From: a virus | Lineage: Duplodnaviria > Caudoviricetes | Length of the DNA: 54,189 nt | Virus record (IMG/VR): IMGVR_UViG_3300040807_003078 | Coordinates: 1-54,189 of that record | Direction: 5' to 3' (one strand) | Shown here: piece after piece, positions 6,042 to 49,763 of the stretch | How the letters are laid out: each line of letters starts with the position of its first letter | Position numbering within the stretch: the stretch's first letter is position 1 | Position numbers and translations under genes: made by a program | Notes under the pieces: model-generated | Told to the model about the DNA's origin: nothing | The model's input: the letters and a program-made list of their open reading frames with translations, nothing else | The model's database searches: none

Positions 6042-6108
6042 AATTTGTTCTCTTTATATTGTGTTGATTCGTGCCGTATGGCGAATTAAGTGTGCCTAAA
6101 ATAATGCC

Positions 6109-6116
6109 TATAAATA
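6109..6116 (+). promoter_or_regulatory. T4-type late promoter TATAAATA
   Basis: Exact consensus in the divergent intergenic region, ahead of the structural operon. Confidence 0.8.
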
Positions 6117-6159
6117 TAGTTAAAGTATACGAAATTTTACAAAGGAAAGCAACCATATA

Positions 6160-24600: not shown

Positions 24601-27600
24601 GAACACAAAAATTGACAAACAAGTCACGTATCAATATGAATTAGACACGCTTGATCTACAGATAGGCAAACACGTGAAAGTTACCTCCGCGGACACAGGT
24701 GGTTGGAAACTGTTCATGAGGACAGCGTCTGGATGGGAAAACGTAGGAACAGAGAACGGCACAATAAGACTATCAACCAAATTGTATGACTATTCACAGG
24801 ATGCCACTGGCTTCGCGGGACAAGACAGTTTCGACGATAACTTCTTTGACCAAGAACCGGGCATAGAGACAAGGAAGATATTGACAGCACTGAGAGACGA
24901 CCTATTCATCAATGAACTAGCGGTAGAATACAATACCTTGTTCTTCACGGGTTTGCGTAAAGTGTTATCTGAACAGACCTATGTTAATTGGATGTTCAAA
25001 ACTTCATTCATAAATGTTAAAAATTCAGTGAGGGAACTGGACCAGCGTAAATCATACACAACAGGAACAGACAGTTGGATAGAGGATTACATAAACGAAG
25101 TAAAACCGTTCCACACTAAATTACGAGAATACAAACTCGGATATGACAAGTTAGAAACACAGGACGGAATCTACACAGACTTCGACAGTCCGACATTCTA
25201 TGATGCCAGTACAGGCAAGATCAGATCACTTAACGTCGACAGCGACACAGACAAGTTGACAGAGTATCCATGGCAGATGTGGAACGACTATCACAAAAAA
25301 TATGTACAGTCGATCACGGTCACATCTGGTGGTTCTGGATACGAGGTCGCTCCAACAGTATCTATACTGGGAGGAACCACAGGATCAACAGGACCTTTCC
25401 AATTACAGGCTACAAGTTCTTCGGGTGCCACAAGCGGAAGTTTTGGTTACTACTTCCCATTATTCACAAGCGAGAAGCAGGCGGAGATACATGATTCACA
25501 GAATGGTGGTTCTGGCACTACTAAATCTTACACGTTTGACGGTTACGACGGAACATTCTATGGCCCAACAGCATCCGTCACTGAAGCACAATCATCGAAA
25601 TCAACTTTATACAAGATGTATGTGACTCCAAGCACAACGGCGGCGACTGCCACAGCGATCATACAAGGTGGCGTGGTTACAAAAATCAATGTCACCGGAA
25701 TAGGTGCCAATTACACAACAACTCCTACCGTGGTGTTGACGGGTGGTAAGACTGACGGTACCACACCAACAGATACAGCCAAAGCATACGCTAACCTAAA
25801 CAATGACCTTGTGAGGGACTTTGATACAACGATCAAGTTTGACAGGATCGCAAGTACATCTAGTGTGGTAGATTGGGCGGCCAATACAACTTATGAATAT
25901 GGTGCTCTTATAAGATACAAAAACGAACTGTACAAAGCAACAAACAGATTTACATCCACTTCGGATTTTGATGACAATATCAATAGTTTGTACAAGTACA
26001 CAGGAGACGAAAGAGCTCTTAATGCCGCTGACAGAATAAAAGGATTCTACACACCAGGATCTGGAATGCCAGGCAATGAACTGGATCAAGTGATGACAGG
26101 GGTTGACTACGGTGGCACAATGGTCACAGGCCTATTATTCAACCAGGAAGCGGGTTGGGACAGATCGGGTTGGTATGACTTCCCGTGGGACAACTACGGT
26201 GACTCGAGGGTCAAGGCGTTCAGGGCAGACGGATCAACGGCATCATACACATTTGACACTGCTCCGGCGAGCAATGAAGTTTATCAAGTTTACATCACAG
26301 CGGATGACAGCACAAGGAGAAAATTGAGTGATGTGATCAGGGGCGATGGTTCGACAGCGACATTTACAATCAGCGAAACACCAGACGGTGACGCCCTTGT
26401 TGAATTCATACCATTCGACGATGACGGAGTTCTTACTCCAACAGACGATAGGACGTTGGATTCGATAGTGAAAGGCGGACTATTCACGTCAGCATTGGGA
26501 CATGCACCTAGCGACATAGTGTTGGAAGGTGATGGATTTGTTACACCTGACACAAGTTACGCACCGGAAGAGACCGTGCCAGGACAAATTTTTGACACAC
26601 TAGACATCAAGGTCTACACCTCACCGGAATCAGGTGTGCCATTCATAAGTGAAATGAATCACGTAGGTAATGGTAGCACAACAACATTCAGCATAGGAGA
26701 TTATCCTGGTTCATTGGGATCAGTCACTGTATCTGTTGATGGAGTGGTCCAAAAATTAACAACGAACTATTCAATCAATGTAGCGAATAAGACTATCACA
26801 TTCACTTCCGCTCCAGCGAATCACAGTGTCATATCCACTAGGGTGTTTGCGATATCAGGTGAGAACTACAGGGTGCTTAATGCATTCACAGGAGATGGTA
26901 GCACGACAACTTTCAAAACATCAACGAGGGGCGAATTCAATCTAGATTCAACATCGTCAGACATTTATGTCACAGTTGATGGTGTGCCAACCACAGCATA
27001 CACAACCACAACTAGGGCAAACACAATCACAGTTGTTTTCAACACCGCACCGGCGGCAAGTTCATACATCCAGATAGCAGGATTCAACAAGTCAACAACA
27101 TCAACAAGAAGTTATGCCAGTGTTAGGAATCAAGCGATAACTTATGATGGATCGACTACCAGATACACTCTGACATATCCACCGGGTGCGATAGGACCTT
27201 TCTCAGGACTCACGACGGTAGAAGTCAACGGCAGGGTACTGCGTGGACCTGATAACACATACTACGTTGGTGATGGAAGTACATACACTTATGGAGTTGC
27301 GTCAGGACTAGGCGATGACTCAACGGTCGATCCGGCAAAAACTATAACAGCGGCAAGCCAGGTACAGGTATTCGTGAATGGTGTGCAGAAAAATCTGAAT
27401 ACGCACTACACTGTAGATATCGGAAATCAAAACATAGAATTTGTAACAGCACACGTTCCAACTTCAACAGACGTCATCTGTATCTCCACGCTGGTAGATC
27501 ACCAGTACTACAACGAAGGCACAGATATAATATTAGTTCCAAGTGCTATAACTTCGCCTTACAGTTTGACAGCGAATGATGTGTTGTCGGTGACAACTTT

Positions 27601-28516
27601 CAACAACGCACTGGGAATGAAACAGAGAAGAGAAGTTTTAGAAGGAAGACCAAGCGGCGTGTTCAAATTGAGGTTTGACACACTCAACGCAAGTTACACA
27701 TATGTGTGGTTGAACGGAGAGCAGTTGACACAGAATCAAGACTACACTGTGAGTGGAAACACAGTCACGGTCACGGGTAAGACTATCACATCAAGCGACA
27801 GGTTGGACGTGATGTACTTCGCACTGGAGACAGCGGTGGGAAGCACAGGCTTCAGGATATTCAAAGATATGTTGAACAGGACTTTCTACAAACGTATCTC
27901 TAAAACTGCCACAACAAAATTAACATTGAGTATGACGGAAGGCACACAGACAATCACGGTCGAGGACGCATCTGTACTGCCTACACCAGACGCGGCGAGC
28001 AACACGCCAGGCGTTGTGTTCATAGACAAAGAGAGAATAGAATACTTTACATTATCAGGTAACACGTTGGGACAACTAAGACGTGGTACTTTGGGAACAG
28101 GAATTAAGGAGCATGGATCAGGCACGGAAGTGGTAGATGCGTCTGGTACTCAAACCATCCCTTATGCGGACACTGTGTACACCAACACCTTCACAGGTGA
28201 CGGTAGCACAGCGACGTTGACACTATCACAAACACCATCATCCGCTAGTGAGTTAGACATATTCATTGGTGGCCAACGATTGTTGCTCACTAGCGAGGAT
28301 GGATCAACCATAAACTACTCTGTGGACGGAAGCACAACTGCGGTGACTTTGAGCACTGTACCCGCTTCAGGAACACAGGTTAAAATATTACACAAGAAAG
28401 GACAGGTCTGGTACACAGCGAAAGATGGTAATCCAGCAGATGGTAAAGGATTACAGGCTTCAACTACTCAACAGGCTAAATTCATTGCTAATGAGCCCAC
28501 AAACGCACCTGAATAA
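15686..28516 (+). CDS. Giant (4276 aa) baseplate wedge/virion structural protein, gp7-like position
   Basis: Follows gp6 with TAATG coupling. IREKGT.NAI wedge-type motif, cupredoxin-like motif, FG-GAP beta-propeller repeats, VKPFHTKLRE, and C-terminal GDGSTT beta-sandwich repeats ending near LRRGTLGT. Confidence 0.8.
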   Translation: MADNPTNSLTNNEVVKQGTNEYRRTVQHLPAFYRTDANQRFLASTLDPLVQKGSLERLDGYIGRQDAYTRNVTDRYLTATSRDRFAYQLEPAVTYTDRDTTSVNPEDQVKFTGTYDDYINQIKYFGGQVNNHDRLNKETVYSWNPAIDYDKLVNYREYYWIPEGPGAIEIDSVGPSAVVEYKVINNARAAYEFVHRENENNPILTLYKGNTYKFDVDAKGHPFWIMTEPYKSKVSADGSTSTIFDTGVTNNGADEGTVTFTVPTTGVPATLYYQCGNHDAMYGIIQIKDATSTTMINVENDIVGAKNYSLRTLDLSNGMKIKFTNALVTSAYQGKEYYVEGVGEAITLTDVEDLITPGSYATESTILYDQVGYDSRPYAKAYYSPETKDYITIKRDSIDQNAWSRYNRWFHRSVIEETARISGHTPELNEDDRAKRPIIEFDSGLALYNHGTVAKKSVTLFDTVTTDAFSDVVKQTGYIVDGVSLADGMRVVFKNDTDPLVKNKIYDVSFVTAGDSTQVIALTEASDAVPSDNDSIFIEFGTANQGNTYYYDSTSETFKDAQQKTGVNQQPLFGMWDNNHVSFDDTTTYPTSTFAGAKVFEFATSDTATTDTVLGIKVKYNTINNVGDIVFESDHTSGTFTYKDGKTTVTKKLAEGHLHYTTGRSTHNSRSAWIKRTNESKQRVIRTFIVDKTEKQFFPIDFYKDSADLSDLEVSVSVNGTRKTQTTDYTLVDGTKNKYVKFNEVLEVNDQIRIAGYSSAEKVDGKGIYEVPENLSTNSLNQQLGTFTYGQILGHVKDIFDKNQDVTGAIPGASNLRDKPDARLKGGSIHQHEGPLLPAIFHLIDQEANFVTSVDYVAQEYEKWYNAFLTHATGTAYEGVAADRVDEIITAITPGRTSSFPFYYEDMIGYGENVSTRNYTVLGSSQTDYALDSQHNITTPSNRAVYVYLNGTQLLLGTDYTFSTTDDSVSISKTLAEGDKIVIKDYTDTTGSYMPPSPTKLGLYPKFKPEAFTDTTYITDTAVIRKHDGSIIKAYGDERDDLILELEKRIYNNLKTAYDSSLLDINDVVPSAFTSTDYSTAEIDNVMGPDFYNWAGRNNVQYINNTVFSEGSPFTYNYSRSTDRLNGAKLPGHWRAIYKYFYDTDSPHTRPWEMFGHSEKPSDWEDTYGAAPYTSGNDVLWDALEAEPGRYGKPLIKSYLPVDASGNLLDPLAAGLVNNFDIPGRQNAWKFGDQAPAETAWRRSSAYPFAVIKTLALTRPARFFSNMFDPSRLSTNTAGNQIYAETGVRQTLASSKYHIETLTDEDTGVTTRYQTAGYQPIIVNYLINRNLNVKTFYHDKMKALTVQLAYKLGGFTDKDNIKVLTDSVSPGSTSGSKFIPDENYKILFRTSNPVESFYYSGVLIEKNTNISEDGSTVLGGYKVLGYSTIKPYFNFNYPVKTTTANKVSVEGSVNVEQYKLYQEATQTIPYGYVFDTIQDVADFLFGYGHWLESQGFKFNKFSNELKETLNWSNAVREFLFWTTQEWAPGSAITVSPAADGFELDTNNSIVGKLRNLAGDYSLLDSGGRKIDVKELSTKRIGKTFELGIKSDTVGLYNVALNTVQKEHILIFDNQTVFSDVIYDPSTGFRQQRLKLVGWKTANWNGDYYAPGFMFDSAQVKYWLANTDYSIGDSVEYQGKFYVSKSNHNSGNTFDNSKWTLKDNKPAPQLIPNFDYKISQFNDFYNLETNNFDESQQQLAQRLIGYQSRDYLENLFVNDVSQYKFYQGYIREKGTQNAIDKLLKAKYEGEDITLDLYPEWMIRTGNFGNTDSTENIQLYLRDNEVTADPQSIELVNTTNDTADYSRSLKVVQNDLYYKPVEYTASTTFSRYDYTKQGVDRDNVQKFKTAGYPQLEQVQHTAYNIDDLFNLDINGVQNKDLIWVANKSNLDWDVFRITNAGVKIATLLLINDATQLEITFTGSHGLSAGTTTSTADLFAIANSEESTLNGVYQVQSTPDHKTVVIDYSGNVGFIPALEDGSTADSYGNVYKFVSVRLSSMDNVNDLLPFNDYDDKQVAQDVNGDHVFADADASGLWRVYEKQDPYTTALQLSPDDATASQEFGYRIVARNDGRTVVASAPGKGQGEVHFLFRTSTEPGTTLLTQASATMTDNDDNTSRLGESLSMSTDENFVVAGAPYTNALGSDGSTRFTDSGLIKIYVWGPTTFKYGILNTITPHVDAASQNFGWAHKISEPGSSSSRSTAQKYLFVSAPGHSSDKGRVYVYTWGIGADGSTYDTWTKDYTLEAPAGGSGQRFGHRIEANDNGDILAVSSLAPGNAGKVEIFVRSGADGSSASTFTLTQTLTGVTSDGSTANTAFGESIAMSKDGSTLIIGAPGVDNSDHADSGAVYYYKWNADGSTNTYTLQQTITVPSTYANMKFGSTLSINHTGKRLVIGAENFASSREMKFDSGETTFDLQDTVIVDSNTGSGGAFTATMYNTKFVLDDRLMADNVSANDDFGRGVCVIDNSVFVGAPDDDGNVTSDGSTRLLNDGTMTCYDLTENGHYAWKNITTETALIDVDKLGQVFQFSTKTKQINDYYDLYDPIKGRILGIADREINIKTAWDPASYNVGQSANFKTAWAENHIGEVWWDLSTVKWLWYEQDSQEYKTNNWGATFPGSSINVYEWVESRLLPSEWNLRSEGTGEAVSGTALYGDDSQFSVVQKYDSSLDRFINYYYYWVKGKTTLPANSVVTRKNTVGFVANVIANPKTFDFKYYAITGTNSLLINNYSDLSNDDIVLNVDIRNNTFDATSHSVWTLVREGDKENKPSTVIETRWWDSLIGKNESGDLVPDFKLPVNERYGNSVRPRQSWYVDRYSALKEIIDYANTMLKKNQLSGTINLDNLDSKDPEPTAQSLEWDASVDTYAELNYINTADLSGTVNYLVKADETANNFWTIYQWDGTEWSRTKVQTYNTSAYWSYTDWYKVDGDMIHDENTKIDKQVTYQYELDTLDLQIGKHVKVTSADTGGWKLFMRTASGWENVGTENGTIRLSTKLYDYSQDATGFAGQDSFDDNFFDQEPGIETRKILTALRDDLFINELAVEYNTLFFTGLRKVLSEQTYVNWMFKTSFINVKNSVRELDQRKSYTTGTDSWIEDYINEVKPFHTKLREYKLGYDKLETQDGIYTDFDSPTFYDASTGKIRSLNVDSDTDKLTEYPWQMWNDYHKKYVQSITVTSGGSGYEVAPTVSILGGTTGSTGPFQLQATSSSGATSGSFGYYFPLFTSEKQAEIHDSQNGGSGTTKSYTFDGYDGTFYGPTASVTEAQSSKSTLYKMYVTPSTTAATATAIIQGGVVTKINVTGIGANYTTTPTVVLTGGKTDGTTPTDTAKAYANLNNDLVRDFDTTIKFDRIASTSSVVDWAANTTYEYGALIRYKNELYKATNRFTSTSDFDDNINSLYKYTGDERALNAADRIKGFYTPGSGMPGNELDQVMTGVDYGGTMVTGLLFNQEAGWDRSGWYDFPWDNYGDSRVKAFRADGSTASYTFDTAPASNEVYQVYITADDSTRRKLSDVIRGDGSTATFTISETPDGDALVEFIPFDDDGVLTPTDDRTLDSIVKGGLFTSALGHAPSDIVLEGDGFVTPDTSYAPEETVPGQIFDTLDIKVYTSPESGVPFISEMNHVGNGSTTTFSIGDYPGSLGSVTVSVDGVVQKLTTNYSINVANKTITFTSAPANHSVISTRVFAISGENYRVLNAFTGDGSTTTFKTSTRGEFNLDSTSSDIYVTVDGVPTTAYTTTTRANTITVVFNTAPAASSYIQIAGFNKSTTSTRSYASVRNQAITYDGSTTRYTLTYPPGAIGPFSGLTTVEVNGRVLRGPDNTYYVGDGSTYTYGVASGLGDDSTVDPAKTITAASQVQVFVNGVQKNLNTHYTVDIGNQNIEFVTAHVPTSTDVICISTLVDHQYYNEGTDIILVPSAITSPYSLTANDVLSVTTFNNALGMKQRREVLEGRPSGVFKLRFDTLNASYTYVWLNGEQLTQNQDYTVSGNTVTVTGKTITSSDRLDVMYFALETAVGSTGFRIFKDMLNRTFYKRISKTATTKLTLSMTEGTQTITVEDASVLPTPDAASNTPGVVFIDKERIEYFTLSGNTLGQLRRGTLGTGIKEHGSGTEVVDASGTQTIPYADTVYTNTFTGDGSTATLTLSQTPSSASELDIFIGGQRLLLTSEDGSTINYSVDGSTTAVTLSTVPASGTQVKILHKKGQVWYTAKDGNPADGKGLQASTTQQAKFIANEPTNAPE
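21976..23230 (+). repeat. FG-GAP/integrin-like beta-propeller repeats within the giant protein (approximate bounds)
   Basis: Blades such as FGYRIVA...VVASAPG, LGESLSM...VVAGAPY, FGHRIEA, FGESIAM...LIIGAPG, FGSTLSI...LVIGAE and FGRGVCV...VFVGAPD. Confidence 0.75.
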
Positions 28517-28525: not shown

Positions 28526-29251
28526 ATGACACAGGACAACAAACCAACAGAATCAAAAGAAGAGAACAAGAAGCCTCAGGATAACACAGGTGTTATGATG
28601 ACTGGGCACATAAAGATATTCGACCCAGAGACAGGCGAAGTGATTGTTGACAAGAGAAACGCGATACACTACGAGAACATGTCTCAGGCCTTGGCTAACT
28701 CATTAGCGAATAAATCAACAGGCTTCGTACACGAAATGGCTTTCGGTAATGGCGGTACAAGTGTAGATCCAACGGGAGTGATCACTTACCTAACACCAAA
28801 CTCAACAGGTACAAATGCCACGTTGTACAACCAAACTTACTACAAAGTGGTGGATGACAACTCTGCAACAAACAAAGATACCACAAGAAACAAGATGGAA
28901 GTGAGACACACTGCCGGCAACAAATACACTGACATTGTTGTGACTTGCACACTTGACTACGGTGAGCCAACAGGACAGGCGGCCTTCGACAACACGACCA
29001 ACTTCAACGGCGACTACGTGTTCGATGAATTAGGATTAAAATCATGGGAAGGAACTGAGAACGGATCAACTAACAAGTTGTTGACACACGTGATATTCCA
29101 CCCGGTACAGAAATCACTCAACAGATTGATACAGATTGATTACACTCTAAGGATTCAAAGTTTAACAACATTCACCGAAACAAGTTCTACAGCACTGTCA
29201 ACATCCAACACAGTGAGCGGAACAACATCAGGTGGTAACACAGGATACTAA
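28526..29251 (+). CDS. Baseplate-associated structural protein (gp8-like position)
   Basis: GHIKIFD...KRNAI, MAFGNGG, FDELGL and LLTHVIFHPVQKS..R.IQIDYTL are typical of baseplate/fibre-attachment proteins. Confidence 0.65.
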   Translation: MTQDNKPTESKEENKKPQDNTGVMMTGHIKIFDPETGEVIVDKRNAIHYENMSQALANSLANKSTGFVHEMAFGNGGTSVDPTGVITYLTPNSTGTNATLYNQTYYKVVDDNSATNKDTTRNKMEVRHTAGNKYTDIVVTCTLDYGEPTGQAAFDNTTNFNGDYVFDELGLKSWEGTENGSTNKLLTHVIFHPVQKSLNRLIQIDYTLRIQSLTTFTETSSTALSTSNTVSGTTSGGNTGY

Positions 29252-30744
29252 TGCCATACACGGTAAACAAGACAAATAGTTCGGCTACGCCAAACTCCTA
29301 CACTGTACAGGACGGTGTTGTAAACTCTCAGACCGATTTAAGTTTCATAGGAAAAGGTTACGCAGGTTACGGTGAGAAAATTGCTGAGAACTTTTTACAT
29401 CTTTTAGAAAATTTCGCCAACGGAACTGCACCAACAAAACCAGTACTTGGACAAATATGGTATGACAGCACCGACGGTAGGTTGAAGGTATATACCTCTT
29501 CAGGATTCGTACCAGCAGGAGGAAACGTTCCGATACAATCATCTGCACCTAGCACTTTGACTAGAGGTGATCTTTGGATAGATTCAGGAACTGGACAACT
29601 TTATTTTTACAATGGCGCTTCTTCAACACTGGTTGGACCACCAAGTTCAACAGGTACAACGAATGGCTTCGTATATGAGACTATATTAGATTCTAGTGAC
29701 ACAAATCAAAATATTACAAAATGGTACAACGACGGAAATTTAATCGCTATAATATCGGAAGACGAGTTCACACCAAAGAGTGCTATATCAGGCTTCGCGA
29801 CAATAAAGAAAGGTATCACCCTTACAACTGCGATAGCAAACACCAAGTTCCAAGGCACTGCCACAGATGCTGATGCACTAGGTGGTGTAGCGGCGGCAAA
29901 TTATCTAAGGGCGAACGCTAACGATACCACATCTGGAACTTTATCAATAGCAAATGACGGCGGATTGATTGTTGGAGCAGACAGTGATATGACTTTCACT
30001 GTTGACAGTTCGGGCGGTATCATCAGTAACGTCACACAAAACACAGACATCACTTTCAAAGTGAACGACGCTGGTACTACGACCACTGTAATGACAATAG
30101 ATGGATCAGAGTCTAGGGTAGGTATAGGAACAACGTCGCCAACAACAAAATTAGAAATTTCAGGAACAACCACATCAACAGCATTCGCAGGTGCATTGAC
30201 TGGAGATGTCACAGGTAACTTGACTAGTTCTGGAGCAAACACCATGGGAACATTGACCATGGGAGGCACTTTGACAACGAAAGCAATATTGCCAGACACA
30301 GATGCGTCATATGATATTGGATCATCGTCGAAAAAATTCAGTAAAATTTATGCTACAGCAACTTCGGCCGAGTACGCTGACTTGGCGGAGATGTACCTGA
30401 CCGACAAGCCATATCCAGTGGGCACGGTGATGTACGTCCACGACGTGGACACATTGGCGGATGCGAGAGCGGGCGAGATTCCGGTGGGAGTCATATCCGA
30501 GTATCCAGCATTCTTGATGAACAACACACAGGCAATGAGCAATGGCCAGTCCGTAGCACTTAAAGGTAGGGTACCAGTAAGGGTTATCGGTTCTTGCAAG
30601 GCGGGACAGCCTGTTTATGTGGGAGAATCTGGCGTAGCAACACCATATGCTGAAGGACAATCAAGCATATTCATAGTGGGAATAGCATTAACAAGCAAGG
30701 ACACAGAGGAAGAGGGACTGGTGGAGTGCATACTTAAAGTGTAG
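29251..30744 (+). CDS. Tail fibre/baseplate fibre protein with a C-terminal intramolecular-chaperone-like domain
   Basis: N-terminal LSFIGKGYAGYGE..ENFLHLLENF shared with its paralogs. GQIWYD/GDLWID repeats, VGIGTTSP fibre motif, and an ADLAEMY...VALKGRVPVRV chaperone-like C-terminus. Confidence 0.75.
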   Translation: MPYTVNKTNSSATPNSYTVQDGVVNSQTDLSFIGKGYAGYGEKIAENFLHLLENFANGTAPTKPVLGQIWYDSTDGRLKVYTSSGFVPAGGNVPIQSSAPSTLTRGDLWIDSGTGQLYFYNGASSTLVGPPSSTGTTNGFVYETILDSSDTNQNITKWYNDGNLIAIISEDEFTPKSAISGFATIKKGITLTTAIANTKFQGTATDADALGGVAAANYLRANANDTTSGTLSIANDGGLIVGADSDMTFTVDSSGGIISNVTQNTDITFKVNDAGTTTTVMTIDGSESRVGIGTTSPTTKLEISGTTTSTAFAGALTGDVTGNLTSSGANTMGTLTMGGTLTTKAILPDTDASYDIGSSSKKFSKIYATATSAEYADLAEMYLTDKPYPVGTVMYVHDVDTLADARAGEIPVGVISEYPAFLMNNTQAMSNGQSVALKGRVPVRVIGSCKAGQPVYVGESGVATPYAEGQSSIFIVGIALTSKDTEEEGLVECILKV

Positions 30745-30766: not shown

Positions 30767-32161
30767 ATGGCGTACACAATTAACAAAACAGACGGAACAG
30801 TAGTTGCTACAATCACGGATGGAACGGTGGACAACACCACTTCGTTGCAGTTGTTTGGTAAATCATATTCAGGATTTGGCGAGGGGCTCAACGAGAACCT
30901 AGTAAAATTATTAGAGAACGCGGCATCAACCGCGGCACCTACAGCACCTTTGAAGGGTGAACTGTGGTTTGACACAACAACAAACCAGTTGAAAGTTTAC
31001 GACGGCACGAGTTTCAAACCAACAGGTGGTTCTAAATCGAGTGCGAGCCAGCCCACCTCACCATCAGCGGGAGACCTATGGCATGACACGGCGAATGATC
31101 AAGTTTCTGTTTACACAGGAAGTGCTTGGTTACTGGTAGGACCAGTATACACATCAGGACAGACTCTATCAGGTTGGAAGATCGAGACACTGGCAAGTTC
31201 AGGTGGAAACAAAGTGGTTTCATCGATGTACGTTGGCAACACAAGGGTTGCTATACTTTCTAAGGAAACTTTCACACCAAGTGCTACGCAAACTGGATTC
31301 GCAGAAATAAAAGCAGGATTCACACTTAACTCAACTTTGAGTGCTGTGTTCGAAGGTACAACAACATCTTCGGCGGCAATAGATGTGTCAGGAACATCAA
31401 ACACTTCAGCGACAGTGATCGCAGGAGGTAATTTTTTAAGAGCAGATGCGGCAGACACGACTACAGGTGCTTTGACCGTGGACACAGATTCAGGTGTAAT
31501 CATTGGTGACGCACAAGAGTTGACTATCACAGTTTCAAGCAATGACGTGACTGTTGCCCAAACTTCTCAAGACAAGGATTTGAAATTCACAGTAAACGAT
31601 GGCGGCGTGACGAAGACACCTCTACAGTTGACAGGTGCCGACGGCGGCATAGACATCACAGGTGACGTTACCATCACAGGTAACTTGAACATATCAGGTG
31701 AATACAATGCTAGTTCGTCAGCGATCAACACATACGATGACGCATTCATCAAGTTAAACAACGGAAACAGTGAAGTAGATTCAGGTATCATAGTAGAAAC
31801 GTCAGACACTGATGATGCCAGATTGTTTTACGATGTATCAGAAAACAGATGGAGTGCTGGTGAGAACCAATCATATTCTCCGATAATCAGATTAGCGGAT
31901 GCTGTGACAGACGGCAACGCAAACAAAGAAAAAGTTTTGAAAACAACAGCGGCTGGACTAGTAACAGTCACAAACATAAACTTGGCCGCAGTCGGTTCAG
32001 CAATAACAACATCAGACACTTCAAGCGTGAGTGTTCCAACTATTGGACAGGTGGCCACTTTTGGTAACCTATGGGGCGGATCAGCCAAAACTGTTTCAAC
32101 TTCAGCACCAACATCAGGCGACGGTGACAACGGGGACTTCTGGTTCGTAAGGGAGGCGTAA
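30767..32161 (+). CDS. Tail fibre protein (paralog 2) ending in STSAPTSGDGDNGDFWF
   Basis: Same N-terminal module and GELWFD/GDLWHD repeats as 29251 and 35478. No ADLAE chaperone. Confidence 0.75.
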   Translation: MAYTINKTDGTVVATITDGTVDNTTSLQLFGKSYSGFGEGLNENLVKLLENAASTAAPTAPLKGELWFDTTTNQLKVYDGTSFKPTGGSKSSASQPTSPSAGDLWHDTANDQVSVYTGSAWLLVGPVYTSGQTLSGWKIETLASSGGNKVVSSMYVGNTRVAILSKETFTPSATQTGFAEIKAGFTLNSTLSAVFEGTTTSSAAIDVSGTSNTSATVIAGGNFLRADAADTTTGALTVDTDSGVIIGDAQELTITVSSNDVTVAQTSQDKDLKFTVNDGGVTKTPLQLTGADGGIDITGDVTITGNLNISGEYNASSSAINTYDDAFIKLNNGNSEVDSGIIVETSDTDDARLFYDVSENRWSAGENQSYSPIIRLADAVTDGNANKEKVLKTTAAGLVTVTNINLAAVGSAITTSDTSSVSVPTIGQVATFGNLWGGSAKTVSTSAPTSGDGDNGDFWFVREA

Positions 32162-32167
32162 TCCTTT

Positions 32168-33592
32168 ATGGCCGCAGTCGTCAAGACATTCAACTATACA
32201 GGCACACTCAACACCGTTACGATACCCGCGGGCACTACATCTATTGATGTACACCTATGGGGCGGAGCAGGTGGCGGTGGTGGTTCTGACGCAGGAGGCC
32301 CTGGAGGAACAGGTGCCGCGGGACACTACGTAACATCTTCTTCAATAGCAATATCATCAGCACAGATCGGAACAACAATGGAAGTTGCAGTTGGTGGTGG
32401 TGCCGCTGGTGGTGGATCAGGTGGTGGAGCACCAGGTGGTACAAATGGAAAAAGTAAAACAGCATATTCAGGTGGTGAAGGCGGTAACGCTGGACCAAAC
32501 CCATATTCAGGAGCAGGCGGAGGTGGCGGAGGAGCCACCCTAGTAAGGATCAACGGAACGGACATCGCAGTCGCAGGAGGCGGTGGTGGAGGTGCCGGTG
32601 CGGGTGCGGCCTCAAACGGAACGTCAGGAGTAAACACAAACACAGCAACAGGTAATTCACCAGGAACACTGGGAGAAGACGGCAAGGACCACAGCGGAGA
32701 CGGTGGTGGTGGTGGAGCCGGCGGTGGTGGTGTTGATGGGGGAACCTCCGGCGATGCGGGCACAGGCGACAACGGTGGTACTGGCGGTAGATCAGGATCA
32801 AACAACGCGGCCAGTGGAACAGAAAACAACGGTTCTGGTGTTACGCCGGGAGGCACTGGATCTCAGTACTACTCTTCGGGTGTAGCAGTTGGTGGACAGC
32901 CAGGCTCGTCAGGAGGAGATGGTAAAGCAGTAGTCATATTCAACGTAGGTGTACAGGCGAACTACAAAGTTTCAGGTACATGGAAAGCAATAGATGATAT
33001 GTATGTCAAAGTCTCGGGTGCTTGGAAGCAGGTCACAGCAGGTTATCACAAAGTTGGAGGTGTGTGGAAAGCACTTTTCAATTCGGGAATAAATTTCGTG
33101 TCGACATCGGCAGGGTTTGGTGACGCTAACGGAAGTTCAAGTTCAGGTGGCGGTGGAACAGGAGGCGGTTGTTTCATAGCAGGCACAATGATCTCAATGG
33201 CGGATGGCACACTCAAACCGGTTGAACAAGTGGACATAGGCGACATTGTATCAGTTGGTGGCAAAGTATTTGCAACAGGTAAGTTCTTGATAGACAACTT
33301 ATATGATTACAACGGTATTCAGGTATCTGGAACACACATGGTCAAAGAAGACGGTGCGTGGATCAGGGTTGAAGACAGCAGAATAGGAAGATCACTAGGT
33401 GACGACGAAGTTATAGTGTACGTGTTTGGTAACGAGAACAGAAGAATCATAATCAACGGAACAGAATTCACAGACTACTTCGAATTAAGCGAACAGCAAG
33501 AATTAGCCAACCACGGCGAACAGTTTTTCAGTAATTGGCAGGATCATGATAGACAGATTCATGATAAAAATGTTAATATACTGAATGCTTGA
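32168..33592 (+). CDS. Glycine-rich tail adhesin-like protein with a C-terminal Hint (hedgehog/intein) domain
   Basis: LWGGAGGGGG polyglycine blocks and triple KV(S/G)GxWK repeat. Then GGG|CFIAGTMISMADGTLKPVEQVDIGD (block A, Cys335 at 33170), VSGTH (block B His) and VYVFGNENRRIIING (block F-like). Confidence 0.85.
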   Translation: MAAVVKTFNYTGTLNTVTIPAGTTSIDVHLWGGAGGGGGSDAGGPGGTGAAGHYVTSSSIAISSAQIGTTMEVAVGGGAAGGGSGGGAPGGTNGKSKTAYSGGEGGNAGPNPYSGAGGGGGGATLVRINGTDIAVAGGGGGGAGAGAASNGTSGVNTNTATGNSPGTLGEDGKDHSGDGGGGGAGGGGVDGGTSGDAGTGDNGGTGGRSGSNNAASGTENNGSGVTPGGTGSQYYSSGVAVGGQPGSSGGDGKAVVIFNVGVQANYKVSGTWKAIDDMYVKVSGAWKQVTAGYHKVGGVWKALFNSGINFVSTSAGFGDANGSSSSGGGGTGGGCFIAGTMISMADGTLKPVEQVDIGDIVSVGGKVFATGKFLIDNLYDYNGIQVSGTHMVKEDGAWIRVEDSRIGRSLGDDEVIVYVFGNENRRIIINGTEFTDYFELSEQQELANHGEQFFSNWQDHDRQIHDKNVNILNA

Positions 33593-34253
33593 TAAAAGTT
33601 TTTACCACGGACAGCAAGGAGAATGTTTTAGGCAGTTGGAAAAACACTGGCGAGACATCAAACACGAGTTCGATTCACAACCAAACAAGACTTTCCTAGA
33701 TCCAGAAGACTTCTCAGACAGCGTGAGGGGACTGCCCGACGACTTCGATGACAGGTCAGGTGACTATGTGCATGGACAATGGAAGGCACTGGGCATACAG
33801 TCAGGAGATCACGAGGGACAATCGTTCAATGATTACCCAATGCTGTATTCCATATTGAGAAAATTTCCCTACAAGACCAACGTTGCCATAATGACAGTGG
33901 GAGCCAACACCAAGATCGGCAATCACACAGACAACGAGGGAGGATGGAGGTATCAGATGTGCCTTGACGATGGCGGCGGCGATCGAAGTGGTATGTATGT
34001 GTTGAACTTGGAAACTGGAAAACAAGAACTTTATACCTGGAAAAGCGGTGAGGCGTTTGTGTTCCAGCCAGACCTACAACTACACAACGGATTCAACAAC
34101 AATCCTGGCGAGAGGACCACGCTATTAATTGACTTTTACAAGGAATCCGTGTACACTAAAGACAAGTTTGAGAAATATTACCAACACTATTCGGAATGTT
34201 TCGAGGGGTTGGAAAATTTAGTGGACACATATGAGTCAAGGAAGAAAAAATAA
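33585..34253 (+). CDS. Aspartyl/asparaginyl beta-hydroxylase family Fe(II)/2OG dioxygenase (AspH/LpxO-like)
   Basis: W.ALGI, HxD (GNHTD), W..GEAFVF, LHNGFN and RTTLLIDF motifs. Confidence 0.8.
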   Translation: MLDKSFYHGQQGECFRQLEKHWRDIKHEFDSQPNKTFLDPEDFSDSVRGLPDDFDDRSGDYVHGQWKALGIQSGDHEGQSFNDYPMLYSILRKFPYKTNVAIMTVGANTKIGNHTDNEGGWRYQMCLDDGGGDRSGMYVLNLETGKQELYTWKSGEAFVFQPDLQLHNGFNNNPGERTTLLIDFYKESVYTKDKFEKYYQHYSECFEGLENLVDTYESRKKK

Positions 34254-34818
34254 GATAGCGATTGTAGGACACACCAAGGGCATAGGCAAGGCCATCGCTG
34301 ACCTATACAACAAAAAAGGTTTCGATGTGCTTGGACTCAGCAAGAGCAACGGGTTCGACATCAATACAGATCAAGAAAAAATTTTAGAAAGCATCGCAGG
34401 ATGTCCTTTGGTTGTGTTGAATGCCTACAGTGGAAGATCACAATTGGATCTGTTGAAAAGGATATACGGAAAACACGCATTTGATAAAATGAAAGTGGCT
34501 GTCATAACCAGCACGTCTGGCACAGACTCTGGCGAGGATTACAACGAGTTTGAATTGTGGAATAAGTTTGAATACGTGCAGTACTGTGAAAACAAAAAAG
34601 AATTGATTGGTTACATCAGTGACCTACAGGAAGATTTGTTCAACAAACCACTTTCGATATACGATGTGTGTCCTGATGTGGTGGACACCGACATGACAAA
34701 AGGGTTATGGACAAATTTGCCAAAACTAAAAGCATCCGAGGTGGCAGATGCAGTGATGCTTTGTTTTGAATCAACATACAACATAAACAAGATAGTGTTA
34801 CAGAAGAATGTTAGTTAG
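34231..34818 (+). CDS. Short-chain dehydrogenase/reductase (SDR)
   Basis: IAIVGHTKGIGKAIA Rossmann motif, VLNA, ITS, YxxxK (YCENK) and CPDVVDTDM. Confidence 0.85.
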   Translation: MSQGRKNKIAIVGHTKGIGKAIADLYNKKGFDVLGLSKSNGFDINTDQEKILESIAGCPLVVLNAYSGRSQLDLLKRIYGKHAFDKMKVAVITSTSGTDSGEDYNEFELWNKFEYVQYCENKKELIGYISDLQEDLFNKPLSIYDVCPDVVDTDMTKGLWTNLPKLKASEVADAVMLCFESTYNINKIVLQKNVS

Positions 34819-35272
34819 ACCCTGGGATAGAGACAAAGATTACAGCACACTGGTCAAGTGGTGGGAACAGTGGGAGTTTGGTGTGGTACCAAAAGAGTGT
34901 CTACCACCAGAGGGAGTAATGGTGGAATCTGACGGACATCCGTTGTGTGCCGGTGGCCTATATGTGGGAGAAGGCACAAAGTTTGGATTCATGGAATGGA
35001 TAGTGACAGACAAACACGCAGATTCCAGGAAAATACACACTGGTCTCAAACTTTGTATAGACAGCATAATGGATTTGGCCAAGGACAAAGGAATCAAATT
35101 GGTCTATACAGCCACCAAGGAACAGGCACTGCATAAGAGATACACAAAATATCACGACATGGTGCTGACAGAGAGTAATGTGAAGACGTTTCTCAGAGAT
35201 CTCGACGGGTCATATTCGCAGGATTTAACGTGGATATCAGACGATGAGCAGATAGAATCACGTAATAAATAA
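34808..35272 (+). CDS. GNAT-fold acyl/acetyltransferase
   Basis: Size and pattern (VRPW...DY..L..WW, LCAGGLY, EWIVTD, AKDKGIKLVYT) fit a phage GNAT. Confidence 0.65.
   Translation: MLVRPWDRDKDYSTLVKWWEQWEFGVVPKECLPPEGVMVESDGHPLCAGGLYVGEGTKFGFMEWIVTDKHADSRKIHTGLKLCIDSIMDLAKDKGIKLVYTATKEQALHKRYTKYHDMVLTESNVKTFLRDLDGSYSQDLTWISDDEQIESRNK
35264..35271 (+). promoter_or_regulatory. Putative late promoter AATAAATA
   Basis: 7/8 consensus at the end of the GNAT gene, followed by SD AAGGAG and ATG 35292. Confidence 0.55.
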
Positions 35273-35477: not shown

Positions 35478-37112
35478 ATGGCATACAAAATAAACAACAC
35501 ATTTGGAACGCTATTGGTCACGTTGGCCGATGGAACTATTGACGTTGGTACAACAGACCTCACGCTGATAGGAAAAGGTTACGCCGGCTTCGGTGAAAAA
35601 CTAAATGAAAACTTCGTAAAATTACTAGAGAATTTCAACAACACATCAGCACCGTCAAACAAGATCCAGGGTCAGATGTGGTATGACAAGACAAACAATC
35701 AAATCAATGTCTACACTGGGTCAAAATGGAAACAATTAGGTTCAACTGTTAACTCTACAACAGCACCCAGCGATGCGGCCACTGGTGATATGTGGTTTGA
35801 TACGTTGAACACCCAACTATACGTGTACACTGGTACGGCGTGGACTCTGATTGGTCCAACCACAGTTTCTGGATCAGGTGTGACACAGGTCGTTACAGAA
35901 TCACCAGAAGACAACACAGGGGTAAAAAGATCAATTCTAAAATTAGTTGCCAATGACACTGTCGTTGGTGTGGTATCTAATCTGGCATTCACACCAAGTG
36001 CGACTGAAACATTAGGTGCGGCACTGATCACAGCAGGTTTTTCATCAGTGGCACAAGGTATACAACTTTCAAGTTCTGTGTCATCAGCAAAATTCAGAGG
36101 CACGGCGACGGATTCTGATCTTTTAGGCGGGGTATCGCCTTCAAGTTATCTGAGATCAGATGGTGCTGACACAACCACGGGTAGATTGACAGTACAATCC
36201 GATGATGGTATACGTTTGGGAGCAGGCAATGACATCACAATGACATTGTCGAGTGATGATTTCACTATCGCACAGACCACGCAGGACAAGGACATCATAT
36301 TCACGGTGAACGATGGTGGCACAACAAAAGAAGCATTGAGAATAACAGGATCCACAGGTAGGATCGAGAGTTTACGAGTAGGCGATTTGACCGTTGATGG
36401 CACACAGACGATCATCAACACGTCGACATTGTCGGTAGAGGACAACATCATAGAACTGAACAGGAACATATCGAGTGCTTCCGGCATGCCGAGTTACACA
36501 GGTTTGAAAGTGAACAGGGGTGAAACTTCATCCTCCACTGAGCAAAATCTCTATTGGGTATGGGACGAAACATACGCAAGTGATGAATCAACAGGTAGCG
36601 GTATAGGTGCGGCCGGTGGTGCTTGGACGGCATTTATGTCTGCCCAGACACAAGGCAACATCGAGGCTCCCACACTGGTGGATATCAGGGCAAACGTGGT
36701 ACACGCAACTTCAACAGCGGCGAGATACGCTGACTTGGCAGAGCGTTACGAAGCGGATTGTTTGATGGAAGTCGGAGATGTGGCGATCTTGGGCGGAGAA
36801 GCAGAAATTACAAAATGTGAGGACGAGTTGTCAGACGCCGTATTTGGTGTTATATCAGAATCACCAGCATTTTTAATGAACGCAGAAGCAGGAAACAACG
36901 AGTCTCATCCGATGGTTTGCTTGAAAGGACGTGTATCAGTCAAGGTACAAGGGTCAGGCAAAGCGGGTGATCGTGTAGTATCAGCAGGAAATGGTGAGGC
37001 ACGTGTGGCACAACTTGAAGAATGTACCGCTTTTAACACCTTGGGAAGGCTGATCAAGGATAAATACAACGTAGAAACAGCATTAACAGAGTGCGTGATA
37101 GGAGTGAAATAA
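35478..37112 (+). CDS. Tail fibre protein (paralog 3) with a C-terminal chaperone-like domain
   Basis: LIGKGYAGFGEKLNENFVKLLENF, GQMWYD/GDMWFD, LSVEDNIIELN and ADLAERY...VCLKGRVSVKV. Confidence 0.75.
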   Translation: MAYKINNTFGTLLVTLADGTIDVGTTDLTLIGKGYAGFGEKLNENFVKLLENFNNTSAPSNKIQGQMWYDKTNNQINVYTGSKWKQLGSTVNSTTAPSDAATGDMWFDTLNTQLYVYTGTAWTLIGPTTVSGSGVTQVVTESPEDNTGVKRSILKLVANDTVVGVVSNLAFTPSATETLGAALITAGFSSVAQGIQLSSSVSSAKFRGTATDSDLLGGVSPSSYLRSDGADTTTGRLTVQSDDGIRLGAGNDITMTLSSDDFTIAQTTQDKDIIFTVNDGGTTKEALRITGSTGRIESLRVGDLTVDGTQTIINTSTLSVEDNIIELNRNISSASGMPSYTGLKVNRGETSSSTEQNLYWVWDETYASDESTGSGIGAAGGAWTAFMSAQTQGNIEAPTLVDIRANVVHATSTAARYADLAERYEADCLMEVGDVAILGGEAEITKCEDELSDAVFGVISESPAFLMNAEAGNNESHPMVCLKGRVSVKVQGSGKAGDRVVSAGNGEARVAQLEECTAFNTLGRLIKDKYNVETALTECVIGVK

Positions 37113-40237: not shown

Positions 40238-41121
40238 GAGTTAAAGATTTAGATTTCGTGTTCATAAGTTTCAAGGAGCCAAACAAGGAATACAATTACG
40301 CGGACCTGTTGAACAAGGTGCCATGGGCCAAACGTGTTGACGGTGTGGTTGGTTTCGACAACGCACACAAGGCCGCGGCCGAGGTGGCGGAGACCGATTT
40401 CTTCATCTCAGTGGACGGTGACAACATCATTGATCCGAAGTTCATCCTGCAGACACTGGACTTCAAGAAAACAAATCCGAAAGCGGTGCACAGATGGAGA
40501 GCAAGGAACAGTGTGAATGGACTGATATACGGCAACGGTGGAGTGGTTGGCTGGCCTAAAGAAACCTGTCTGGGTATGAAGACACACGAGAACTCGGACA
40601 CGAAAGAAAATCAGATAGACTTCTGTTGGGGGGTTCCACACGAGAATCTCCACAATGTGTATTCGGAGACGGTGATCAATACCTCCCCTAACCAGGCATT
40701 CACGGCAGGGTACAGGGAAGGGGTAAAGATGAGCCTCGATCAGGGTAGTTCAATAAACCCAGCGGAGTTCGTGAGCCAGATGTATAGACCAAATCTTAAG
40801 TGCTTGACCACGTGGATGAGTGTGGGAGCCGATGTTGAGAACGGCAAGTACGCCATGTTGGGAGCGAGGATAGGTTGTTGGCAGACGGTGATACAGAAAT
40901 TCGAACCAGAAGTGGTCAGAGACCTCGATGACATCAACGAGAGGTTCAATGAATTGGATGGAGAAGTGGATGAACTAGTAGAACTCTATGGCAACAGCCT
41001 GAGGCAGAGACTGGGCATAACCATAGCGGACTACGATGACGAGCAAAGCAGTTTCTTCAAGTTCTGCCAACCACAGTGGATCAACAAAGGAGTACAGGAC
41101 CGTGAACAAAAGTACCTATAA
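40225..41121 (+). CDS. Putative GT-A fold glycosyltransferase
   Basis: DFVFISFKEP, AHKAAA, FFISVDGDN (DxD), NGLIYGNGG and AGYREGVKM. Confidence 0.7.
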   Translation: METVRVKDLDFVFISFKEPNKEYNYADLLNKVPWAKRVDGVVGFDNAHKAAAEVAETDFFISVDGDNIIDPKFILQTLDFKKTNPKAVHRWRARNSVNGLIYGNGGVVGWPKETCLGMKTHENSDTKENQIDFCWGVPHENLHNVYSETVINTSPNQAFTAGYREGVKMSLDQGSSINPAEFVSQMYRPNLKCLTTWMSVGADVENGKYAMLGARIGCWQTVIQKFEPEVVRDLDDINERFNELDGEVDELVELYGNSLRQRLGITIADYDDEQSSFFKFCQPQWINKGVQDREQKYL

Positions 41122-42481
41122 GTCACAGGCAGACCACGCCAAGGAGAAACTGGCCGAGGTGTCACCGACGATGTGCCTGGCAAAATGGAACCAGACCTCA
41201 CTGCACCTGCCCACGGGACTGACGAACAGTTGCTACCATCCACCACTGCACGAGATAGACTACAACAAGTTGAAGGACAATCCCGCGGCACTGCACAACA
41301 CCGCGGAGAAACTCAAACAGAGGCAACAGATGCTGTCGGGCGAGCAACCCGCAGGCTGTAGTTACTGCTGGAACATAGAGAAGACGGGCGAGATGTCAGA
41401 CAGGCACTACCGTTCAGGAGAGCCATGGGCCATGCAGGACTTCGACGCGATCAGGAGGAATCCCATAGACGAGAACTGGACGCCCAGGTACGTGGAGGTC
41501 AACTTCAGCAACGCCTGTAACTTCAGGTGCAGTTACTGTTCTCCACAGTTCAGCACCACGTGGGCCAGGGAGACGGACCTCTATGGTGAGTACCCAACTA
41601 CGCCACCGCACAACGCACCCGAACACTTCCAGGGCCGTCGCAGACCCATACCAAACAGGGATCCAAATCCCTACGTGACTGCCTTCTGGAAGTGGTGGCC
41701 TACGCTGTACAAGAACTTGAAACACTTCAGGATGACCGGTGGTGAGCCCATGATGGACGTCAACACATACAAGGTGTTCCAGTACATAATTGACAACCCA
41801 AAACAGGACCTACACCTCAACGTCACAAGCAACATGTGTCCCGCGGACAAGAAGTTGAAGGAGAAGTACTTCAACATGGCCCAGACGATATGTATGCAGG
41901 AGAAGGTGGAACACATGATGCAGTTCGTGTCAGTTGACGCATTCGGAAATCGTGCGGAGTACATACGTGACGGATTGGATTTCGATTACATGATGGACAA
42001 CGTGGAGGAGTTCCTGGACAGGATACCCGGACGTAATTCGATCACATTCATATGCACATACAACAACCTCAGTATAACAAGCATGGACAAACTGTTGGAG
42101 AAGATATTGGAACTGCGTAAGAAGTACAGCAAGACATACCAGCGTGTGTGGTTCGACGTGCCACTGCTGAGACAACCCGCGTGGCAACAGATAACAATGC
42201 TACCAGAGGCATACCAGAGCATACACGAGGACAACATAGAATACATGAAACAGAATTCCGGCGAGTCAAACGGCTTACACATATTCAAGGACTTCGAGAT
42301 CCAAAAAATGCAACGCAATCTCGCATACTGGCGTGAAAACGCGGACGCAAGTACGCAAAACAAAAAAAACTTTTACGCTTTTTTTAACGAACACGATCGA
42401 AGACGGTTAACTAGTTTTTTAAACACTTTTCCTGAGATGGAAGAGTTCTGGGAGGAGTGTAAGAACGCATGGATGATTTAG
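41102..42481 (+). CDS. Radical SAM protein with N-terminal twitch/SPASM-like Cys motif (copy 1)
   Basis: Likely GTG start after AAGGAG. CLAKW...SCYHPP...CSYC, then CNFRCSYC and TGGEP. Confidence 0.9.
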   Translation: MNKSTYKSQADHAKEKLAEVSPTMCLAKWNQTSLHLPTGLTNSCYHPPLHEIDYNKLKDNPAALHNTAEKLKQRQQMLSGEQPAGCSYCWNIEKTGEMSDRHYRSGEPWAMQDFDAIRRNPIDENWTPRYVEVNFSNACNFRCSYCSPQFSTTWARETDLYGEYPTTPPHNAPEHFQGRRRPIPNRDPNPYVTAFWKWWPTLYKNLKHFRMTGGEPMMDVNTYKVFQYIIDNPKQDLHLNVTSNMCPADKKLKEKYFNMAQTICMQEKVEHMMQFVSVDAFGNRAEYIRDGLDFDYMMDNVEEFLDRIPGRNSITFICTYNNLSITSMDKLLEKILELRKKYSKTYQRVWFDVPLLRQPAWQQITMLPEAYQSIHEDNIEYMKQNSGESNGLHIFKDFEIQKMQRNLAYWRENADASTQNKKNFYAFFNEHDRRRLTSFLNTFPEMEEFWEECKNAWMI

Positions 42482-49332: not shown

Positions 49333-49763
49333 AGATATTGATTATGGGTTTGCCAGGTTCAGGCAAGACAACTCTAGCAAAACATCTTGTACCGATGTTG
49401 AATGCTGTTTGGCTGAATGCTGACGCAGTGAGGAAACAAGCAGACGATTGGGATTTCTCAGAAGAGGGAAGGACCAGACAAGCAAATAGAATGAAAACAC
49501 TGGCACAAGAAACAGTAGCCAGAAACAGGGTAGTAGTGGCTGATTTCATATGTCCAACAGAAAGCACTAGGCAGGACTTTGACGCAGACTACACAATATG
49601 GATGGACACAATAAAGGAAGGCAGATTCGAGGACACAAATAAGATGTTTGAATCACCAACAGCATATGATTTCAAAGTCACGCACATAGAGGCGAATATG
49701 TGGGCGTACCTTATAAAACAAGACATAATAGACAAACACGGAAACCTAGGACCACACAGATGA
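49329..49763 (+). CDS. cysC: Adenylyl-sulfate (APS) kinase-like protein
   Basis: GTG start (GTGA overlap). P-loop GLPGSGKTT, NAD.VR...DWDFS.EGR, VVADFICP and FESP. Confidence 0.8.
   Translation: MKILIMGLPGSGKTTLAKHLVPMLNAVWLNADAVRKQADDWDFSEEGRTRQANRMKTLAQETVARNRVVVADFICPTESTRQDFDADYTIWMDTIKEGRFEDTNKMFESPTAYDFKVTHIEANMWAYLIKQDIIDKHGNLGPHR

Follow-up and report, generated by a model that had tools for sequence, protein, structure and literature searches.

A phage-specific Hint cassette at the C-terminus of a presumed cyanophage adhesin, with a strictly linked partner gene

We analysed a 54,189-nucleotide stretch of viral DNA (IMG/VR record IMGVR_UViG_3300040807_003078; Duplodnaviria, Caudoviricetes), hereafter the window, which is the structural (baseplate and fibre) module of a T4-like cyanomyovirus. 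Our subject is the open reading frame (ORF) at 32168..33592 on the plus strand, which was confirmed as a real gene and encodes 474 amino acids up to a TGA stop. Its product is built of five parts, namely a glycine-rich domain, three KVxGxWK repeats, a poly-Gly linker, a Hint domain and a helical tail. Residues 335-436 have the Hint fold of the HINT superfamily, and together with the tail they form a phage-specific C-terminal cassette that is found on diverse virion proteins and is strictly linked, in both directions, to a partner gene encoding about 150 residues. The explanation that we favour, and that we hold to be slightly better than an even bet, is that the adhesin is synthesised as a precursor whose C-terminal Hint module removes itself. 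Both the fold and the chemistry are already known; what appears to be new is a terminal Hint class of phage virions with an invariant Asp, a helical tail and an obligate partner. Known Hint uses comprise inteins, Hedgehog processing domains, bacterial intein-like (BIL) domains and pretoxin Hints. Full-text literature searches found no description of a phage-specific Hint class ending virion proteins, passages of PMC5259590, PMC3556154 and PMC3482391 contained nothing on this module, and the class is not covered by Pfam, NCBIfam or any annotated PHROG.

The Hint core (residues 335-436; 33170..33475, plus strand) carries the nucleophile Cys335 (codon 33170-33172), the block B motif S387-G-T-H390 (His390 at 33335-33337) and, within F434-T-D-Y-F-E439, Asp436 (33473-33475). 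The initial annotation of this gene had located the glycine-rich domain, the three KVxGxWK repeats, the SSSGGGGTGGG linker, the Hint starting at Cys335 and the block B His, and we found all of them at those places. In the AlphaFold2 model of residues 255-474, the block-mean predicted local distance difference test (pLDDT) score reached 94-98 at residues 335-434. A Foldseek search of this region against the PDB gave a probability of 1.00 for BIL2, Vint, BIL, intein and Hedgehog structures. The ranking was led by BIL2 of Tetrahymena BUBL1 (E=3.5e-5), followed by a class 3 split intein, Vint, a Clostridium BIL domain and many inteins, while Hedgehog 1at0 stood at rank 28 (E=1.6e-2). Among viral models, the matches were proteins labelled 'Hint domain containing', from uncultured Caudovirales and from giant viruses. 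Profile comparisons agreed with the fold: a profile of 48 relatives matched block A of the PI-SceI intein (E=4.1e-6) with Cys335 placed on Cys1, and an hhalign comparison of 131 terminal modules with 21 canonical Hints of related proteins gave a probability of 98.7% (E=1.5e-16) over blocks A and B, the SGTH of block B being aligned with the T-S-E-H of the canonical Hints.

When 59 representatives were searched, no Pfam model came above its cut-off on the Hint-plus-tail cassette, which showed at most sub-threshold matches to block A. Hom_end_hint on residues 335-361 remained below threshold (E=0.005, 17.3 bits against 32.1). The Hedgehog-type Hint model PF01079 did not match the window protein at E<=0.1 and scored 15.2 and 16.1 bits in two orthologues, against 29.7 required; Hint_2 (PF13403) did not match the window protein and scored 14.4 and 14.8 bits in orthologues, against 28.4. 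Hint_2 matches of 23-29 bits among the 59 representatives were confined to proteins with an upstream canonical Hint; the best Hint_2 stretch of P0128 (residues 655-683, 29.2 bits) falls on block A of its terminal module. PF07591 (PT-HINT) gave no match to the terminal module, and the Peptidase_S74 and Peptidase_G2 autocleavage domains gave none in the window protein.

To count conservation, we used an unfiltered hmmalign alignment of 151 sequences, each cut to its last 230 residues, with the profile taken from 131 motif-selected modules. Since picking these 131 by motif fixes the Cys and the Asp by construction, all 151 sequences were counted instead. The 20 sequences outside the 131 are mostly fragments, together with P0216 (canonical Hints only), P0237 (a different C-terminus), P0241 and P0258 (both of which keep Cys and Asp) and P0261. 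Position 335 was Cys in 139/139 relatives covering the column, position 390 was His in 145 of 146, and position 436 was Asp in 144/144. The neighbouring positions varied within narrow sets, with Ser (119), Thr (14) or Ala (11 of 146) at 387, Thr (112), Ala (23) or Ser (6) at 435, and Tyr (130) or Phe (10 of 144) at 437. The His-Asn of class 1 inteins is absent, Thr435-Asp436 being at the inferred position, and so is the +1 Cys, Ser or Thr, where Tyr437 stands; there is no C-extein, just a 38-residue tail. Because Cys335 and His390 are kept while His-Asn and the +1 Cys/Ser/Thr are missing, canonical splicing is not expected, which bears out the view of the initial annotation. Judged from these sequence features, thioester formation at the N-terminus of the Hint and cleavage at 334/335 would be the expected natural reaction.

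The helical tail (residues 437-474; 33476..33589, plus strand) is conserved and ends in Leu-Asn-Ala. It had been described as about 30 extra residues behind a Hint ending in FTDYFE; the motif is correct, and the tail after Asp436 counts 38 residues. Helices are predicted at 442-449 and 457-473 (pLDDT ~70), and position 473 is Asn in 104/105 relatives. We then compared the five segments by the proportions of nonsynonymous (pN) and synonymous (pS) differences, given as medians against 38 orthologous genes, with pS lying between 0.43 and 0.74 over the five segments. The N-domain (pN 0.21, pS 0.61), the repeats and the linker had pN/pS values of 0.35, 0.32 and 0.38, respectively. The value was 0.14 for the Hint (pN 0.08, pS 0.56) and 0.05 for the tail (pN 0.02, pS 0.43), the lowest of the five segments. 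The Hint and the tail are under strong protein-level constraint, the tail most of all.

Searching residues 320-474 against 1.84 billion representatives returned 2031 clusters (50% identity) at E<=1e-3, of which 853 had E<=1e-10 and 109 had E<=1e-30. Among the best 150 matches, the module reaches the last residues of proteins that are 84-1809 amino acids long. The cargos ahead of it are diverse. According to Pfam, the 59 representatives include DUF4815 (6), tail lysozyme with LysM (1) and LysM alone (1), and under a 60%-coverage rule the 80 viral loci that we examined fall into 17 cargo clusters. A looser clustering, which had put 74/80 loci together, probably through linkers and upstream Hints, was superseded by this rule. 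P0075 combines a different N-terminus with the same repeats and Hint. Close relatives are abundant in metagenomes, with 836 proteins at E<=1e-3, the 120 listed being at least 80% identical over residues 255-474. A tblastn search of GenBank phages with the complete 474-residue protein gave no match, and with residues 255-474 it gave short pieces in 22 records, none at >=80% coverage; these pieces are KV repeats in jumbo phages and intein block A in Vibrio phage helicases. A cluster look-up of the relatives yielded no label other than 'hypothetical protein' or uninformative ones. In a search of one genome per prokaryotic species, a method that detects close relatives only, we obtained one full-length relative, on a 15-kb contig of a metagenome-assembled genome (MAG), and three further matches limited to the first 27-41 residues (block A). 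This contig (NHDJ01000025.1, locus L096), binned with a Verrucomicrobia MAG, has a Hint module 88% identical to that of the window and is probably a cyanophage contig in the wrong bin.

Some relatives carry A-type-BIL-like Hints ending in His-Asn directly upstream of the terminal module. Among the 59 representatives, upstream canonical Hints occurred in 8, of which 7 end in His-Asn-Lys and one is an eight-Hint protein. Canonical Hints ending in His-Asn-Lys or His-Asn-Arg stand directly ahead of the terminal Hint in P0123-P0128, P0200, P0229, P0239 and P0265, mostly as one copy and as two in P0229. In the orthologue P0200, the same glycine-rich N-domain is followed by a canonical Hint and then by the terminal Hint. 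P0216 is a row of eight canonical Hints and resembles A-type BIL domain arrays. In the small relatives P0242, P0213, P0228, P0201, P0208, P0222 and P0255, a membrane-like glycine-zipper stretch closes the cargo and lies directly against the Hint Cys, with a weak Pfam Gly-zipper_YMGG match in P0242 (E=8e-4).

The partner gene lies at 34808..35272 (plus strand) in the window and encodes 154 amino acids of phrog_17252, a family with no assigned function. Proteins of this family, 145-155 amino acids long, are encoded downstream of the Hint gene in unrelated contigs. Starting from the Hint, the partner was found downstream in 76/80 viral loci, the other 4 having just 79-698 nt of downstream flank; starting from the partner, a terminal Hint was found upstream in 78/80 loci, the other 2 having <=70 nt upstream. 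The two genes are also physically close. In 29/36 partner-bearing loci outside the cyanomyoviruses, the first base of the partner lies 11 nt ahead of where the stop codon of the Hint gene ends; 4 loci have a gap of 14 nt. The window and 36 cyanomyovirus loci have a gap of ~1.2 kb that holds two genes, which in the window are an Asp/Asn beta-hydroxylase-like gene (33585..34253, plus strand; Pfam Asp_Arg_Hydrox, E=4.8e-11) and a short-chain dehydrogenase-like gene (34231..34818, plus strand; adh_short, E=2.2e-7). The hydroxylase-like gene overlaps the end of the Hint gene by 8 nt. This insertion is limited to the cyanomyovirus lineage, where it is gained or lost together with the Hint block.

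Orthologues with another C-terminus help to place the partner. Orthologues exchange their C-terminal modules precisely at the poly-Gly linker, and P0319, P0307, P0330 and P0308 keep the N-domain, the repeats and the poly-Gly linker, which are then followed by an unrelated module of ~130 residues. This alternative module begins with RVICTW, is rich in aromatic residues (loci L081-L094, match at about 6001-6375) and has no Pfam, PHROG or NCBIfam match. Partner, hydroxylase and dehydrogenase were absent from 14/14 loci with the alternative module; in the 13 of them that are syntenic, ~220 nt separate the orthologue from the next fibre gene. As these 13 loci may stem from one exchange event, the independent weight of the linkage comes from distant phages with different cargos, that is, from the 17 cargo clusters. 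Since the partner is absent where the Hint is replaced, it belongs with the Hint and not with the glycine-rich domain. A role as fibre chaperone for the glycine-rich domain was considered and is unlikely, because 14 loci keep this domain without the partner.

The partner sequence itself offers a lead. Cys47, Tyr112 and Lys114 are invariant in 25 sequences. The partner has no Pfam or NCBIfam match, a profile search of the PDB gave nothing better than E=0.76, and none of the 25 sequences matched a Pfam GNAT model at E<=5. In a language-model comparison, its nearest named Atlas clusters were viral GNAT acyltransferases (score 0.96, 155-156/256 shared features); in two such clusters, PF00583 is present in 56-67% of the members. 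We take this likeness to GNAT acetyltransferases as a lead only. Complex prediction for residues 324-474 with the partner returned no answer (score 0.01, mark 0.32) and is evidence neither for nor against an interaction.

Under the self-removal reading, Cys335, aided by the block B His390, would attack the carbonyl of Gly334 in an N-to-S acyl shift and form a Gly334~Cys335 thioester. Splicing could not follow, since Asp436 and Tyr437 stand where His-Asn and the +1 Cys, Ser or Thr would be needed, and the thioester would be resolved, most simply by water. This would give a 334-residue mature protein with a flexible poly-Gly tail and a 140-residue fragment of Hint plus tail. The cassette would act as a temporary C-terminal module for assembly or control, like the intramolecular-chaperone autocleavage domains of other phage fibres, and the helical tail and the 154-residue partner may control folding, oligomerisation or the timing of cleavage. 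The Hint fold, the conservation of its catalytic residues, its place in a C-terminal cassette, the purifying selection and the link with the partner gene are shown by the data above; what we infer is the cleavage, where it occurs, what becomes of the thioester, and what the tail and the partner do. A precedent is given in passages of PMC7765530, where B-type BIL domains have the intein motifs minus the C-terminal one and cleave at their N-terminus.

Several observations weigh against this reading. Plain hydrolytic removal leaves unexplained both an obligate partner gene that often overlaps the Hint stop and a tail that is more constrained than the catalytic core. The residue before the Cys is not fixed, with Gly at position 334 in 99/146 relatives, and in the relative P0261, inspected by eye, Gly replaces the Cys. 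The register of Asp436 on the terminal Asn of inteins is likewise inferred, from the last beta-strand of the model, which ends at 435, and from two weak profile alignments that set Thr435-Asp436 on the canonical His-Asn (one an alternative alignment with a probability of 2%, the other with E=0.0068 and a probability of 6%). A global hhalign run forced both C-termini together and was left out of the assignment of this register.

The partner linkage, the constraint on the tail, the Hog-like architecture and the BIL2 match keep alive a different idea, which we hold tentatively and consider rather doubtful. In the manner of Hedgehog or BUBL, the Gly334~Cys335 thioester would be passed to a Lys or N-terminus of a virion protein, to a lipid or to a small amine, and the adhesin would be fixed through its poly-Gly C-terminus. 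The tail would select the acceptor, like the sterol-recognition region of Hedgehog, and the 154-residue partner would be a transferase, an acyl carrier (through the invariant Cys47) or the acceptor itself. The language-model lead for the partner is to GNAT enzymes, which use thioester acyl donors. A Hint followed by a C-terminal extension at the protein end, a tail that is the most constrained segment, and a partner that accompanies the Hint in both directions and is missing from all 14 loci where the Hint is replaced are consistent with ligation. The top structural match, BIL2 of BUBL1, forms an isopeptide bond between a C-terminus and a Lys without ATP, according to passages of PMC8616854. 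The glycine-rich domain, moreover, is N-terminal here without a docking part, whereas passages of PMC9608196 place that of Pam3 distally behind a docking helix. Against ligation, no result here names the acceptor, and the 25 partners gave no Pfam GNAT match and no PDB match by profile. The very diverse cargos, among them lysozyme-bearing and DUF4815 giant proteins, suit a generic maturation role at least equally, and the linkage of the partner could also mean a chaperone or regulator. In its most specific form, which we regard as unlikely, Hint and partner would be an ATP-independent phage ligation system: a GNAT-like partner without a recognisable CoA loop would use the protein thioester as acyl donor and staple the cargo C-terminus to an amine of the virion or the host envelope, thereby fixing a docking-less adhesin to the tail.

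The cassette might also be selfish, with Hint and partner as a mobile two-gene element that inserts at 3' ends of structural genes in phages, the Hint excising itself harmlessly and the partner serving spread or maintenance. Its patchy presence among orthologues with exchange exactly at the linker, its occurrence on many unrelated cargos, its much higher conservation than that of the host proteins and the physical coupling of the two genes would all fit. However, searches of the partner against Pfam and NCBIfam gave no sign of a nuclease, an integrase or another mobility function, the Hint-less orthologues carry another ~130-residue C-terminal module, so the adhesin seems to need one, and self-removal alone needs no strong constraint on a 38-residue tail; we consider this account very improbable. 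To a last pair of readings we assign the lowest probability of all. In one, Asp436 would cyclise like an intein Asn and free the 38-residue tail as a functional peptide; in the other, the Hint would be catalytically silent and serve in structure or binding. A second cleavage is favoured by the ability of Asp-ended inteins to cleave C-terminally, by the invariance of Asp436 at the inferred terminal-Asn position and by the tail being the most conserved part. The penultimate His is missing, position 435 being Thr, Ala or Ser, and there is no evidence for a free tail peptide. A silent Hint, for its part, would not hold Cys, His and Asp invariant across 2031 clusters.

The self-removing module that we favour has relatives among known systems. 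Like B-type BIL domains (Hint_2), it is a Hint with a block A Cys and a block B His but without His-Asn; both are found in proteins that are variable and not conserved, and N-terminal cleavage is expected of both, as far as excerpts of PMC7765530 describe the BIL domains. Unlike them, the present module is phage-specific, forms the very end of its protein and has an invariant Asp, a helical tail and a partner gene. BUBL1 BIL2 (PDB 6y75, 6tmm), the best structural match, acts on a Gly-rich C-terminal end without ATP. It has a terminal Asn (the crystallised mutant being N143A) and joins ubiquitin-like domains to Lys, according to excerpts of PMC8616854. In contrast, the module here has Asp for Asn with Tyr next to it.

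The junction of Hedgehog proteins is Gly-Cys-Phe, and the window protein shares with the Hedgehog Hog region the order of cargo, Gly-Cys-Phe junction, Hint and C-terminal helical extension at the protein end. In Hedgehog, the thioester is resolved by a nucleophile that the extension chooses (PMC7765530). The label 'Hedgehog-like' given initially therefore holds for the architecture, a Hint with a C-terminal extension at the end, but not for kinship, since BIL2, Vint and BIL are nearer. Compared with Hedgehog, the module here has a weaker structural similarity, scores below the PF01079 cut-off, ends in a tail of 38 residues and occurs in a bacterial setting; to our knowledge, bacteria generally lack sterols. 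No similarity of the tail to the sterol-recognition region was detected, and none was sought.

Peptidase_S74 and Peptidase_G2 intramolecular chaperone (IMC) domains are also C-terminal fibre modules with presumed self-removal after assembly. Two fibre-like ORFs close to the adhesin gene weakly match such a domain, the known counterpart of the module proposed here. They differ in fold and chemistry, S74 chaperone domains having a Ser-Lys dyad where the module here would use a Hint thioester, and the partner here is a separate gene. PT-HINT (PF07591), as outlined in passages of PMC3482391, is likewise a non-splicing Hint for autoproteolytic release in modular, recombining proteins; it frees a C-terminal toxin domain, whereas here just a 38-residue tail follows the Hint.

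The cassette and its partner hint at an undescribed step of maturation or protein joining in phage assembly. If cleavage is all that occurs, the module would be a second, chemically different removable C-terminal chaperone for phage fibres and would naturally supply proteins that end in a defined Gly thioester. If ligation is true, virions would be built covalently in a new way, and protein thioesters would be put to a new use with the help of an enzyme. Either way, the class matters for how abundant genes of marine cyanophages are annotated, as represented by the 836 close metagenome relatives.

The presumed cargo is the N-terminal domain (residues 1-262; 32168..32953, plus strand), in which Gly makes up 34%. 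Over residues 1-260, the full-length AlphaFold2 model has block-mean pLDDT values of 69-94, at least 78 in every block except one. Foldseek matched it to Bxb1 tail-tip chains (9d93_Q, E=2.7e-5), the Pam3 fibre (7ypx, 9e-5) and the ALK/LTK glycine-rich domain (E=1e-4 to 1e-3), with modest TM-scores across the Bxb1, Pam3 and ALK matches (TMt 0.32-0.43). Pfam Gly_rich_2 (PF21722) scored 25.4 bits in the orthologue P0348 against a cut-off of 24.3, and 18 bits in P0330; the window protein had no match to it at E<=0.1. The earlier proposal of a polyglycine adhesin agrees with these fold matches, and on the strength of the model we presume that the N-domain is a TNF-like plus polyglycine receptor-binding domain. 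By its model, it would share the TNF-like fold and polyglycine lattice of Pam3 gp24, the S16 gp38 adhesin and the ALK glycine-rich domain; here, by contrast, it is N-terminal, has no docking helix and is followed by repeats, linker and Hint. In the Pam3 fibre, the glycine-rich domain is the receptor-binding part and lies C-terminally, distal to an N-terminal docking helix, according to passages of PMC9608196. The domain in the window protein starts at the very N-terminus, with nothing ahead of it and no recognisable docking domain.

Residues 263-304 (32954..33079, plus strand) hold the three KVxGxWK repeats, which start at residues 267, 281 and 295 and are predicted to form beta-hairpins (strand pLDDT ~68-71). 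They are matched by phrog_25859 (E=5.6e-10), a family with no assigned function, and they recur in jumbo phages of Ralstonia, Burkholderia and Rhizobium, in hypothetical proteins belonging to this family; by sequence, KVxGxWK looks like a widespread fibre repeat. The flexible Ser/Gly linker covers residues 305-334 (33080..33169, plus strand), with a pLDDT below 50; its SSSGGGGTGGG stretch begins at residue 324, and its last residue is Gly334, ahead of the predicted cleavage between Gly334 and Cys335. The Pro-rich antisense ORF at 32326..32856 is a mirror of the Gly codons and leaves nothing more to explain.

The window, which spans a complete viral record of 54 kb, carries SbcCD-like nuclease genes and further encodes a late sigma factor, a baseplate hub, a baseplate wedge subunit and several fibre-like proteins. 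Directly downstream of the baseplate wedge gene lies an ORF of 4276 residues (15686..28516). The adhesin gene is flanked by fibre-like ORFs at 30767..32161, which has a Mtd_N match near threshold, and at 35478..37112. The latter and the ORF at 29251..30744 have N-terminal matches to virion structural PHROGs and weak C-terminal matches in Pfam to Peptidase_G2/IMC autocleavage domains (E ~1e-3, below the cut-off). Further along the window (41036..47527 and 49700..54183), a run of ORFs, 4/5 of them with weak radical-SAM PHROG matches, precedes genes for a carbamoyltransferase, a nucleotide-sugar epimerase and an aminotransferase. This region next to the fibre genes may be a cluster for sugar or glycan modification.

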